DNA of 32,669 bases, from assembly GCA_045863855.1 (NCBI GenBank), contig BTVV01000066.1, positions 1 through 32,669 of the forward strand. The letters run 5' to 3'. The stretch is from Planctomycetota bacterium (lineage in GTDB: Bacteria; Planctomycetota; SZUA-567; H5-PLA8). The position numbers were made by a program. Each line of letters begins with the position of its first letter. Within the stretch, counting starts at the first letter, position 1. Below are positions 30,001 to 32,669 of the stretch, in pieces.

Positions 30001-32669
30001 CCGCGTCTTCGGATCGTACTCCCACGTCTGCGACAGGCGGTGGAACGGGACCACCACCTTCCCTCGAGCCGCGTCGTACGCCGCGTTGCCCCACAGCTCC
30101 ATCCGGCTGTTGTAGCCATACGCCAGATTCGGCCGCACGTTCCCTTCGAGGTCCTTGAACGCCGAGTACGGATGAAACGCCGGCGCCTGGCTCGGACCGG
30201 ACGGCTCGCCCCACTTCCCCTCCATCCCGATCGGAAAACGGTTCTCCCAGCGCGACGCCTTCAGATTCAACGTGACTTCCGAGTACACGCCGCCCTTCCC
30301 CGCCGCGCCGCCCAGCACCACGAACGAACGCTCTTCCGGAAGGTAGACCAGCCCCACCGAGTTGCGCGCGCCGTATCCGCCCGCGTCCAGCATGGTCCAC
30401 GCTTGAACCGGCGCCTTCACCAACGCCTCCGGCAACTCCAACGCCCCGCCAGACTCGAACGCCGGAACTTCCCCCGCGCCCGCCATCCCGGCCGCGCACG
30501 CCAGCACCGCCAGCAGCGCCGCCGCCCGGACCGAATCTCCGTACACCCCTCCAAGCCAGCGCAGCACCGTGTACCTCCTTCGCACGCTTCCGGAGCGCCC
30601 GCACCCGGCCGCTCCTTCGCCTTTACACCCCAACCGCGCCCGCCCGAACCCCACCCTTCGTACCCCGGCCCCCAACCGAAGGGAACCGGAATCCCACGCC
30701 ATGAAACCTTTTGCAACGCGAATTAGCGCCAAGCCCGCCGAAGGCCTTTGCCAACCGTAGGATGGGCAGCGAATGCCGTAGCGTTAGAAAGAGTTCAGCC
30801 ACCCCTGCGCAAGGCGATTCAACGACCGGAAAGATAGGAGCGGCGGGCGCCCCCGCCCGCCGGCACGAAGCCGACACCCTAGGACCTCATCGCCCCAACA
30901 TCTATTCAATCTGTATGGGCGGCCTAAACCCCGCCGGATTTCTCATTCAGCAATCTAAGCACTTTCAGTCGGTGTTCAAGAATGCTCAACTCCACTTCGA
31001 ATAAACCAAGATCATCCTTCCGAGCCACGACCTGCTCCAAGACCTCGGCGAGTTCGCGGTCTTCGCTGAACCAGAAAATTAAGCTATCCATGGCTGCATT
31101 TCGATCTCGCCGATCGCCGCTTTGCCACTGATCTTTCATGCGTTTGACCCAATCTCGTTTCAAGCCTGACGGAATGGGAAATGAATGCGGCGCATGTTTG
31201 ATCCATCGGCGGTTCGCGAGAATGAGCAGGGCATGAGCGGCTCGCTCTTGCAACTCGGGATAAGGCGCATGCAGAAAGTGCTCAAGAATGGCCTTGTCCT
31301 GCTCGTGCGCGTCGTAGATGCCATAGTGCAGCAAGGCGCGCTCGAGTGCGTCGATCGGCCGCCTGAAAAGCCGTGAATTAAAACTAACCGCCGGCTCCCA
31401 TGATAGCTTTCCATCCTCGAATACCATCTTGATTAGATTGGGACGGTCTTGCTCTTTGCTCACGAAAACATACGAACCCGGCCGAACCCAAGGCGCGATC
31501 TCTTCCAAGATGTAGGTGTAGCACCGGCCGCACAGGCGGTAGTGCAGTTGGAAGAAATTTCCGGCGTTGTCCGGACTCACTTCCCAATGCTTTTCAGCGA
31601 GCAGTTGCGTGAGCAACGTCGAGGCATCGGCGGATGCGGCATCGCCGTCCGCGATAACGAACCCGGTTTCGATCAGGTGCTTGAGCGCAGCCGCGTGGTG
31701 CTCCCGCGCCAAAAAGAACTCCGTTTCCAGAACGATCTCCCACTGGCCCATCCGCGGCTTCCTCCGCCCTTGACCATTAAACAATTCGCCGTTCACCGCC
31801 CTTGTGCCAAAAGCACAACCTTTGTTAGCCTAGCGCGAAGCGCGCCCCACCCTCTGACGCCCTGCGAATTTGCCCTTACCAAAAACGCCCTTCTCCACCC
31901 TTGTGCCAAAGGCACAACCTTCGTTAGCCTAGGGCGAGGCGCGCCACGCGCCGACGCCCTAGGACCCAACCGCCCCAACATCCACCCCGCCCTGTAGGGG
32001 CGGCCTAAACCTCGTGCATCAATCCCACACGAATCGCTCATCGAAATCCACACGATACCTGCGCAATAACTCCCGCAATTCTTCCTGAAAGGTCATCTTC
32101 GCGTGATGCGAACGCTGCTCTCGAATGTAACGTCTGCATGCCGCCGCGTTCGACTCGCCGATGGAAAACGCGCCGTACCCGCGCTGCCAATAAAACCGCC
32201 CGTGCGACTTCAGCCACACGGAACTGCTCTGCTTGAGTTTCTTGACCAGATCCGCGATGCAGGTGCGGCGCCCTAGCCCCACTAGGAGGTGAACGTGATC
32301 GCGCATGCCGCCGATCTGCAAAGCCGGGGAGTCGCACGAGCGCGCGACGGTGGCCAGGTACGCGTGCAAACCCCGCTCGAACGACGGATCGATGAAGGGT
32401 TCGCGGTCTTTGGTCGAAAAGACGATGTGGACCAGAATCTTGGAGAGCGACTGCGGCATGCCGACCCCTTCGGGATGCGCGTGACTCCGCCCCTACAGGG
32501 CGGAACGCCGGTTAGGGTTCCCGCTACCTAGGACATCGCCGCGCGAAACCGCGCGGCTCGTCCTAGGCTAACCAAAATCGCGCCTTTGGCGCGAAGGCGG
32601 AACTACTCTTTAGGAAAAAACCAACAGGACATCGCCGCGCGAAACCGCGCGGCTCGTCCTAGGCTAACC

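Follow-up and report, generated by a model that had tools for sequence, protein, structure and literature searches.

As far as their accessible texts go, the closest described systems are the REPtrons of E. coli, Pseudomonas and Stenotrophomonas, in which REP or BIME elements accompany a RAYT (TnpA-REP) gene (Messing 2012, PMC3479197; Bertels & Rainey 2011, PMC3116915; Corneloup 2021, PMC8266576; Quentin 2018, PMC6006769), a REP being defined as a hairpin with a conserved 5' GT[AG]G foot that is present in many dispersed extragenic copies per genome. The enzymes of the IS200/IS605 elements (IS608, ISDra2, IS200) recognise subterminal DNA hairpins, and the accessible part of the survey that reports this (Quentin 2018, PMC6006769) describes a TnpA-Y1 subclass 1.2, found mainly in Cyanobacteria and Bacteroidetes, with DH[IV]H, WQ and YIKNQKEHH-type motifs, a length of about 148 aa, a tail that is conserved at the C terminus and few, divergent copies, which it enters as 'REP: no'. 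GTAG-tagged REP families are known from the PVC superphylum (Di Nocera 2013, PMC3733652), and class 3 TnpA-Y1 proteins with CnGA-footed hairpins from Solibacter (Quentin 2018, PMC6006769). The Acido-Lenti-1 motif, RF01687, whose Rfam seed comes from Lentisphaera araneosa, Koribacter versatilis and Solibacter usitatus, is filed by Rfam as an sRNA gene, and in the accessible table of Weinberg 2010 (PMC2864571) it carries none of the flags 'tson', 'rep' and 'DNA?'. The family goes unmentioned in the accessible portions of Di Nocera 2013 (PMC3733652) and Quentin 2018 (PMC6006769), and our literature search found no paper that links Acido-Lenti-1 to a Y1 gene.

The window analysed here, the whole 32,669-nt stretch of a contig (C66) from a Planctomycetota genome (G000, 64% G+C), carries such a gene together with several copies of the motif. 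We consider it likely, with a probability of about 0.8, that this is a REPtron-like locus, a single-copy IS200-related HUH/Y1 gene lying between inverted, outward-facing copies of its cognate three-hairpin DNA repeat. Acido-Lenti-1 is most likely one part of that repeat, paired with the Y1 gene, and not an RNA gene. The features of the window are as follows.

30870..30933, minus strand: relic of a further module, of which the 3' part of H1 remains together with the spacer and a degenerate H0; matches the proximal 3' module at 80% over 65 nt
31798..31863, minus strand: distal, degenerate 3' module; RF01687 12.9 bits; matches the proximal module at 85% over 72 nt
31899..32014, minus strand (the gene strand): gene-proximal 3' module, reading away from the gene; RF01687 34.0 bits at 31902-31963, R1 45.2 bits
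32019..32459, minus strand: predicted HUH/Y1 enzyme gene, TnpA-Y1 subclass 1.2, 146 aa; PF01797, NF033573, motifs and AF2 model
32476..32596, plus strand (opposite to the gene): gene-proximal 5' module, reading away from the gene; RF01687 21.9 bits at 32562-32593, R1 48.3 bits
32626..32669, plus strand: beginning of a tandem H1-foot-H2 array (period about 96 nt) that is cut off where the contig ends; 100% identical to 32530-32573

The layout is [H2-H1-H0] gene [H0-H1-H2], with both proximal modules facing outwards. In the 3' module H0 lies at 31987-32003, H1 at 31928-31963, the foot at 31924-31927 (TTAG on the plus strand, CTAA on the minus strand) and H2 at 31901-31917, while in the 5' module H0 occupies 32487-32503, H1 32527-32567, the foot (CTAA) 32568-32571 and H2 32578-32594. 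The initial annotation had described the gene as bracketed by inverted Acido-Lenti-1 copies, with two on each side, and this holds up: both Rfam matches recur with the same scores and positions, and the outer copies are the degenerate one at 31798-31863 and the contig-cut one at 32626-32669. Neither match reaches the RF01687 gathering score of 37 bits, and the architecture of the family (8-bp hairpin, GCUA linker, 5-bp hairpin) is present in a full-length alignment, model positions 1-46. The degenerate copy retains an intact H2 (31803-31817) and its foot (31825-31828, TTAG on the plus strand) and has lost the outer 5' arm of H1; the relic at 30870-30933 abuts the stop codon of an unknown 290-aa ORF (30924-31796, minus strand). 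Folded as ssDNA against 200 shuffles, the proximal modules reach z scores of -4.7 (3') and -6.5 (5'), none of the 200 shuffles being as good, whereas the degenerate copy (z -2.0) is not outstanding. The tandem array most likely continues on another contig of the genome (G000:C23:1-257), whose start holds three more units with the same period of about 96 nt, and the contigs of four metagenome runs likewise break at 32559.

The full repeat unit is larger than the Rfam motif: it measures about 100-120 nt and has three hairpins, namely a small H0, a spacer, H1 with its 8-bp stem, the foot, some 10 nt and a small H2. RF01687 spans only H1, foot and H2 of this module. The foot, C-T-(A/G), follows H1 directly and reads N-Y-A-G on the other strand, 5' of the hairpin, most often as GTAG. 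Across 150 module matches its T is invariant (150/150) and its C nearly so (134/150), the commonest tetranucleotide being CTAC, or GTAG on the other strand (42/150), where the copies in the window have TTAG. In the alignment of these matches (A3), which was fitted to the three-hairpin covariance model R1, 97.8% of cells are paired, 15 of 17 pairs show compensatory change and 514 two-sided changes stand against 11 one-sided ones, with G-U pairs in about 0.5% of cells; the seed alignment gives the same picture of covariation. The module structure is real, and it behaves like DNA.

Strong covariation of this kind is also what led to the original probable-RNA call ('y; COV nc' in the accessible table of Weinberg 2010, PMC2864571). 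It would suit a structured sRNA or cis-acting RNA, for example one that regulates the Y1 mRNA, as happens in IS200, or one that partners the enzyme, and the 5' module must indeed fall within the 5' leader of that mRNA or close to it. We nevertheless find such an RNA very improbable. The copies that flank the gene lie on opposite strands, others form tandem arrays and inverted doublets or sit at contig breaks, there are dozens per genome in several sequence families, and the pairing is almost purely Watson-Crick. The scan for promoters and terminators gave nothing above shuffles: it detected no sigma-70-like promoter and no excess of terminator-like sites (5 against 3.3 +/- 1.7). A DNA repeat paired with the Y1 gene accommodates these observations better, and it is to that gene that we turn.

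The ORF at 32019-32459 scores 80 bits against PF01797 (Y1_Tnp, cut-off 23) and, as had been annotated initially, passes the IS200/IS605 model NF033573 at 60.9 bits (cut-off 55). A tblastn search of the whole genome with the 146-aa protein likewise agrees that this is the sole intact copy; the only other match is a decayed C-terminal remnant (C6:107170-107343), after which comes an H0-H1-H2 module of its own. The protein has its HuH motif at H55/H57 (DHVH), WQ at positions 91-92, a conserved C-terminal tail and, within YIREQRSHH, the tyrosine Y111 of a predicted catalytic motif. Among 81 homologues of 146-151 aa with a conserved C-terminal tail, Y...Q..HH and WQ are kept throughout (81/81), and the HuH motif reads DHVH in 52, DHIH in 10 and a variant [DN]H.H in 18 others. 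The TnpA proteins of IS608, ISDra2 and IS200 are both the nearest solved relatives by sequence and the closest folds to the AF2 model (pLDDT 95.9); 4ER8 gave no match to the enzyme family profile at E<=1, yet its fold is alike (TM 0.63).

The element had first been read as REP-like and linked to a RAYT. The former part stands, in that a REP-like element is paired with a Y1 gene. The latter does not: identity with the class 2 RAYTs is rejected, as the protein scores only 21.3 bits against the RAYT model NF047646 (cut-off 80) and carries Y---Q--HH instead of Y---NP. Judged by its sequence, the enzyme is a TnpA-Y1 of subclass 1.2 on the IS200 branch and not a RAYT in the family sense, with DH[IV]H, WQ, Y---Q--HH, a length close to 148 aa, the conserved tail, and few, divergent copies, namely one plus the remnant in the source genome and five matches in its sister genome (G052, 8 contigs).

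The arrangement recurs well beyond this window. We examined 80 homologue loci from several phyla, with 43-92% identity to the query, and an Rfam scan of these with 1500-nt flanks at E<=1 returned 53 rows, of which 39 were RF01687, in 21 of the 80 loci; the initial annotation had reported 37 of 52 rows in the same number of loci. Thirteen of the matches lie upstream on the opposite strand and ten downstream on the same strand, and 27 of the 39 fall within 160 nt of the gene, 23 of these 27 facing outwards. For the 59 loci with no hit that annotation had offered two explanations, a link that is not universal or flanking hairpins that have diverged beyond the Rfam model. R1, for which flanks of 15 of the 80 loci served as the training set, places an outward-facing module no more than 60 nt from the gene at 69 loci, against 21 for Rfam, and on both sides at 43; in the 65 loci that contributed no seed sequence, these counts are 55 and 31. 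As in a REPtron, the Y1 gene lies between inverted repeat copies in the window, and in these loci the copies adjoin it on at least one side (69/80) or on both (43/80).

The density of R1 matches falls from 5.99 per kb in the first 150 nt from the gene to 1.66 (150-500 nt), 0.39 (500-1000 nt) and 0.07 (1000-1500 nt), and within those first 150 nt 123 matches face outwards and 20 inwards. The distance to the gene ends is stereotyped, at roughly -9 to +40 nt. At 60 of 72 loci a comparison of the two flanks without any model gave inverted repeats above the highest value of a far-flank control, and the recurrence around homologues in several phyla that had been proposed is borne out. This control was taken within each locus and replaced a cross-locus control that only 12 of 77 loci exceeded and that had a heavy tail (99th percentile 94), because the flanks of different loci resemble each other. 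A loose hairpin descriptor (7-bp stem, CT[AG] foot, 5-bp stem, G-T allowed) was dropped as too permissive, with a background of about 2 matches per kb per strand and only about twofold enrichment near the gene.

Intergenic hairpins of a generic kind, be they terminators, stabilisers of mRNA or sites for protein binding, might also collect near a gene with no further connection to it, and REP-type hairpins are known, in the accessible literature, to have been co-opted for such roles; a T-rich run comes after one H2. Chance clustering of this sort, however, hardly produces the narrow range of distances, the bias of 123 to 20 in orientation and the paralogue-specific sequences that are seen across phyla, and we regard it as the least probable of the alternatives. 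A repeat that belongs to the gene is further indicated by the distribution of the two across genomes. In 150 Planctomycetota genomes, G000 not counted, 36 have both, 4 the gene only, 15 the motif only and 95 neither (odds ratio 57), and in 120 Acidobacteriota genomes, G151 not counted, the corresponding numbers are 25, 2, 8 and 85 (odds ratio 133); related genomes are not independent, so that Fisher p-values for this co-occurrence overstate the case. The gene is present in 29 of the 31 Planctomycetota genomes with at least five motif matches. Of the genomes that have the motif, 15 of 51 in Planctomycetota and 8 of 33 in Acidobacteriota (including the unpublished G203) have no subclass 1.2 gene, and five such gene-less genomes, which gave 10 to 35 motif matches, yielded Y1 genes of other classes only, none of them beside the motif matches listed. 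With some motif-rich genomes, G012 and G016 among them, lacking this gene, we can at most infer that the element is 'mobilised or bound by' the enzyme, as it was first put.

Related copies on other contigs had also been noted, and they are numerous: RF01687 gives 36 rows at E<=10 on many contigs of the source genome, four of them above the gathering score (37.4-40.4 bits), and R1 finds at least 17 modules there and at least 84 in the sister genome, each search covering 150 candidates. In the sister genome there are four intact paralogues and one fragment, with 42-92% identity to the query, and every paralogue is flanked on both sides by H0, H1 and H2 sequences of its own. The locus common to both genomes has a 92% orthologue with the same flanking modules. 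Of the dispersed modules of the sister genome, 59 were examined: 8 resemble the flanks of the 49% paralogue at full length (83-95%), 28 resemble those of the 53% paralogue (75-92%, some over about half their length) and 12 match the flank of no paralogue. Inverted doublets with no gene between them recur at several sites, as REPINs do, with three copies in the sister genome (85-90% alike over 305 nt) and six in G012. A further repeat of about 430 nt lies on one side of all three doublets of the sister genome, which may thus belong to a larger duplicated unit; an Rfam scan of this repeat, which adjoins many modules, found no family.

Such doublets resemble MITEs, and together with the NF033573 score and the kinship to IS608, ISDra2 and IS200 they could be taken as signs of an ordinary selfish insertion sequence of the IS200/IS605 type, whose gene and two hairpin ends move as a unit and which has undergone no domestication; dispersed modules and doublets would then be derivatives of it that resemble MITEs and have lost the gene. 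A second copy lies nearby at some loci (L056, L040; G172, G205), and 3 of the 80 homologue genes have internal stops. We think this unlikely, although less so than the other alternatives. Elements of that family have distinct, directly oriented left and right ends, multiple near-identical copies and often tnpB, and here the ends are inverted copies of one module, the source genome has a single intact copy, and the paralogues of the sister genome are divergent, each with its own ends, rather than identical copies. The orthologous locus with the same flanking modules in both genomes also speaks against a mobile unit. No tnpB partner was seen, in the sense that the one neighbouring ORF tested by a Pfam scan has no family. 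A true IS200 in our sample looks different, with five copies in G103 that have identical scores, and the accessible text of Quentin 2018 (PMC6006769) states that subclass 1.2 is without IS properties.

A REPtron-like locus agrees better with these data, and the likeness to the REPtrons, as far as the accessible descriptions of these allow, extends to the low-copy HUH/Y1 gene between inverted hairpin repeats, a short foot whose commonest form is GTAG, the separate repeat family of each paralogue and the occurrence of repeats as dispersed singles, clusters and inverted doublets. There are differences as well: the enzyme belongs by its motifs to class 1 whereas the RAYTs belong to class 2, the unit has three hairpins where a REP consists of a single palindrome of 20-40 nt, its foot is of the degenerate form NYAG, copies number at least in the tens rather than the hundreds, and enzyme activity is here a prediction. 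By analogy with the E. coli TnpA-REP and the TnpA proteins of IS608 and ISDra2, the enzyme would bind the folded hairpin and its foot on ssDNA and might cut or rejoin DNA beside them. Such cutting and rejoining would spread, maintain or rearrange single modules, tandem arrays and the gene-less, REPIN-like inverted doublets, and may do so to this day.

The present system departs from the accessible entry for subclass 1.2 in having flanking modules at 69 of 80 loci and in being common in Planctomycetota, Acidobacteriota and Verrucomicrobiota. It shares with RF01687 the two-hairpin architecture and the GCUA linker, and many copies in relatives, like the four in the source genome, pass the gathering score; what differs from the Rfam filing is that the motif behaves here as a component of a DNA repeat that goes with a Y1 gene. 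With the PVC and Solibacter families, so far as their accessible descriptions go, it has in common short-footed hairpin repeats, the same phyla and, in some cases, adjoining Y1 genes. H1 of the module may overlap with the GTAG families of O. terrae and R. baltica, which are set beside it by description only. Class 3 has a different foot and different enzyme motifs.

If this reading is right, it would correct an annotation that labels thousands of intergenic DNA repeats as sRNA genes, would supply a DNA partner for a Y1 subclass that its describers list without REP, and would extend partnerships of the REP/RAYT kind between host and element to the IS200 branch, as well as to Planctomycetota, Acidobacteriota, Verrucomicrobiota and Bacteroidota. 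A bolder proposal, to which we give slightly less than even odds, is that Acido-Lenti-1, being no RNA gene, serves as DNA partner to another branch of Y1 enzymes, one tamed independently of the class 2 RAYTs, belonging to class 1 and derived from IS200. The partnership would be old and maintained in at least five or six phyla, with a private three-hairpin code for each paralogue. The REP/RAYT way of life would then have arisen more than once, and these paralogues would represent a large natural set of orthogonal pairs of HUH enzymes and ssDNA hairpins.

For the module family of the window itself, similarity among dispersed copies is only 73-82% over about 117 nt, and therefore nothing points to recent movement in the source genome. 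A comparison of 20 regions of the sister genome with the source genome for filled and empty sites gave no clean insertion site, and the C3 region of the source genome had no unique counterpart in the sister. A candidate gene-less variant of the window, a joint skipping 32044-32402 in one of four DNA runs, was rejected as too weak, with 27 letters on its shorter side. The regional comparison did reveal one module that lies on different sides of a 520-nt segment (L140 in the sister genome, C51 in the source genome) and one 2-kb difference (L136 against C135). It also revealed that most contigs of the source genome stop at repeat clusters. The repeats break short-read assemblies, as can be seen from the at least 17 modules of the source genome against at least 84 in its long-contig sister, and from the end of the present contig within an array.

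The unit that surrounds the Y1 gene is larger than the match to the Rfam motif RF01687 (Acido-Lenti-1). The initial annotation had described inverted copies of this motif, as a hairpin pair, on the two sides of the gene; the inverted copies are confirmed and both bit scores were obtained again, but the unit has three hairpins. Reading of the flanks gives the layout H2-H1-H0, gene, H0-H1-H2, and we refer to H0, spacer, H1, foot and H2 together as the module. The features are as follows.

32019-32459, minus strand: Y1 gene, ORF of 146 aa
31902-31963, minus strand: RF01687 match, 34.0 bits, below the gathering score of 37
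32562-32593, plus strand: RF01687 match, 21.9 bits, below the gathering score of 37
31987-32003 and 32487-32503: small hairpin H0 of the two sides, exact reverse complements of each other
between H0 and H1: spacer of about 23 nt
31928-31963 and 32527-32567: long hairpin H1, with an outer stem of 8 bp
after H1: foot CTAA, then about 7-9 nt before H2
31901-31917 and 32578-32594: small hairpin H2
31798-31863, minus strand: second module, degenerate
30870-30933: module relic
from 32626, on the 5' side of the gene: tandem array repeating about every 96 nt, interrupted by the contig end

Folded as single-stranded DNA, the two gene-proximal modules reach z-scores of -4.7 and -6.5 against shuffled sequences, with none of 200 shuffles equal. 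Contig C23 of the source genome opens with three further units of the same ~96-nt period, and the array at 32626-32669 seems to go on at C23:1-257. In four public metagenome runs the contigs are likewise broken at 32559, and depth rises across the repeats. The orthologue in the sister genome G052 has one module in place of the array, and in three metagenome runs a contig passes the first module (32602) into sequence resembling that which follows the array on C23, so that either the length of the array varies or the assembly has collapsed it. Directly downstream of the Y1 locus, between the relic and the degenerate module, lies a 290-aa ORF (30924-31796, minus strand) that matches no Pfam or NCBIfam family.

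The arrangement recurs around homologues of the gene. We collected 80 loci (43-92% identity) from Planctomycetota, Verrucomicrobiota, Bacteroidota, Acidobacteriota, deltaproteobacteria, Chlorobiota, Balneolaceae and one Bathyarchaeia bin; this bin, labelled as archaeal (record title Bathyarchaeia archaeon MAG), contains two Y1 genes of bacterial type in tandem, with identical modules. Scanned with all Rfam models at E<=1 and 1500-nt flanks, the loci reproduced the earlier result: 39 of 53 rows were RF01687, nine of them above 37 bits, spread over 21 loci, while the other 59 gave no RF01687 match. Of the 39, 27 are no more than 160 nt from the gene: 13 on the opposite strand upstream of it, 10 on its own strand downstream, and 4 reversed. 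The remaining 12 are farther away; one of them follows a second Y1 copy at a distance of 55 nt. A comparison that uses no model, in which the upstream 250 nt were reverse-complemented and aligned to the downstream 250 nt, gave a median inverted-repeat score of 61. Control segments from the same loci, at a distance of 750-1000 nt, scored 18 in the median and 26 at most; this maximum was surpassed in 60 of 72 loci, and in Rfam-negative loci the alignments reveal the identical H0-H1-foot-H2 layout.

A covariance model of the module, R1, has a seed of 28 modules and comprises three helices, 17 pairs in all; in the seed alignment 93.3% of cells pair and 13 of the 17 pairs show two-sided change, which none of 500 shuffles matched. 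At E<=0.01 R1 matches the 80 loci 269 times and misses none of them. A module reading outward from the gene lies within 60 nt of it in 69 of the 80 loci, and 43 loci have one on either side; for the 65 loci from which the seed took nothing, the two counts are 55 and 31. The density of matches falls with distance from 5.99 per kb (0-150 nt) through 1.66 and 0.39 to 0.07 (1000-1500 nt), and outward matches outnumber inward ones 123 to 20 in the nearest bin, the orientations being equal at greater distance.

Motif and gene also occur together at the level of genomes, with the reservation that related genomes are not independent, so that the p-values exaggerate the association. Among 151 Planctomycetota genomes at least 90% complete (RF01687 at E<=0.01, protein at E<=1e-5), 52 carry the motif and 41 the protein; leaving out the source genome, 36 have both, 4 the gene only (two of these weak, IS200-like matches), 15 the motif only and 95 neither (odds ratio 57). 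The gene is present in 29 of the 31 with at least five motif matches, the exceptions being G012 and G016. A sample of 121 Acidobacteriota genomes drawn around genome G151 gave, without G151 itself, 25 with both, 2 with the gene only, 8 with the motif only (7 without the unpublished G203) and 85 with neither (odds ratio 133). Many of the listed motif matches adjoin listed gene matches and point the expected way, as in G040, G067, G094, G120, G210, G226 and G263. In five motif-rich genomes that lack the gene, the Y1 genes detected with Pfam Y1_Tnp are all of other kinds and mostly in long open frames; no listed motif match adjoins any of them.

In 150 R1 matches, 97.8% of cells pair, two-sided changes outnumber one-sided ones 514 to 11 and G-U makes up about 0.5% of cells, values biased in favour of pairing by the fitting of the alignment to the model. 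Such nearly exclusive Watson-Crick pairing is expected of a palindrome that is read on both strands, unlike a typical RNA. The copies on opposite strands around the gene, the tandem arrays and inverted doublets, the assembly breaks at copies, and the lack of promoter-like sites and of any excess of terminator-like sites at the copies all argue against an sRNA gene. The letters right after H1 are C in 134 and T in 150 of the 150 matches; the commonest foot tetranucleotide is CTAC (42 of 150), which on the opposite strand gives GTAG at the hairpin foot, and CCAG, TCAG, AAAG, ATAG and TTAG also occur. The module therefore shares the layout of a REP, but with a degenerate foot.

The reading as a REP-like element instead of a free-standing sRNA gene is thus supported, but by sequence the partner is not a RAYT. 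The window's protein scores 80 bits with Pfam Y1_Tnp (cut-off 23) and 60.9 with the NCBIfam IS200/IS605 model (cut-off 55), but just 21.3 with the REP-associated tyrosine transposase model (cut-off 80). WQ and Y...Q..HH are present in all 81 family sequences and [DN]H.H in 80; the proteins are 146-151 aa long with a conserved C-terminal tail in common, and three of the 81 contain internal stops. The closest solved proteins by sequence are the TnpA of ISDra2, IS608 and IS200, and E. coli TnpA-REP (4ER8) has no match to the family profile at E<=1. An AlphaFold model (pLDDT 95.9) is best matched by ISDra2 TnpA (E 2e-9, TM 0.65), with 4ER8 at rank 30 (E 7e-6, TM 0.63). Judged by sequence, the enzyme is of TnpA-Y1 subclass 1.2 (Quentin 2018) and falls outside the RAYT family, not being a class-2 RAYT. 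The system probably operates as a REPtron/REPIN system does. The original interpretation is supported with three refinements: the unit has three hairpins, the enzyme is of subclass 1.2, and mobilisation is an inference.

The entry for Acido-Lenti-1 in Weinberg 2010 (PMC2864571) grades it as a probable RNA and carries no transposon, repeat or DNA flag. We found no published link between the motif and a transposase in the literature on the motif, mostly at the level of titles and abstracts, nor in that on RAYT/REPIN in Planctomycetes or on TnpAY1, REPtrons and subclass 1.2. Passages in Di Nocera 2013 (PMC3733652) describe GTAG-tagged REPs in Planctomycetes and Verrucomicrobia, with REPtrons in most of the host species; these REPs may overlap with H1 of the module.

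By tblastn the window's Y1 gene is the single intact one in the source genome; a C-terminal remnant of 58 codons on C6 is directly followed by its own H0-H1-foot-H2 module. RF01687 gives 36 rows there at E<=10, four above the gathering score, and R1 gives 17; these are floor values, since the scoring covered 150 candidates out of about 1900. The copies form about four sequence families with one common architecture. Full-length relatives of the window module, on C189, C3, C51, C27 and C38, are 73-82% identical, too diverged to suggest recent movement in this genome. Five clustered modules of three sequence families, all on one strand (C120:16926-17396), are reminiscent of mixed BIME clusters.

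G052, of the same genus and in 8 contigs, holds a 92% orthologue with the same modules, intact paralogues at 66, 53 and 49% identity and a 42% fragment; each of these has its own H0/H1/H2 sequences on both sides. R1 finds at least 84 modules there, and every intact gene of the four has one on either side. The regions covered contain 67 of the 84, eight at gene flanks and 59 dispersed, which were sorted against these flanks and a ninth reference added by hand, the module beside the 42% fragment.

Best matches of the 59 dispersed modules of G052
Flanks of the 49% paralogue: 8, at 83-95% over the full length
Flanks of the 53% paralogue: 28, at 75-92%, some of them along roughly half their length
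Flanks of other paralogues, weakly: 11
No paralogue flank: 12

G052 has three divergent doublets, each about 305 nt long and at a site of its own, which are 85-90% alike throughout, with arms of two different H1 types. All three are flanked on one side by a non-coding repeat (about 430 nt), and what is repeated may therefore be a larger unit. Six contigs of G012 carry six doublets that have about 250-280 nt in common and whose arms are true inverted repeats. G077 and G138 each have about ten motif matches with identical bit scores on different contigs, families of identical copies that suggest recent amplification.

The ~430-nt repeat (C38:17563-17988 of the source genome) is lower in G+C than its surroundings and has at least 11 copies in that genome, several at contig ends (further sites on C52, C79, C236, C74, C94, C82, C58, C235, C15 and C154), with no internal ORF of at least 80 aa and no Rfam match; in G052 it often adjoins three-hairpin modules and doublets. 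A second repeat, of about 110 nt (C3:3688-3800), has at least 15 matches in G052, several directly after the H2 of a module; some modules may carry such an additional repeated segment. Finally, an orthologous module (88% alike over 216 nt) borders a conserved 520-nt segment in both G052 (C2:749900-754100) and the source genome (C51:35279-39049), but on opposite sides of it, a hint of either local movement or independent insertion.
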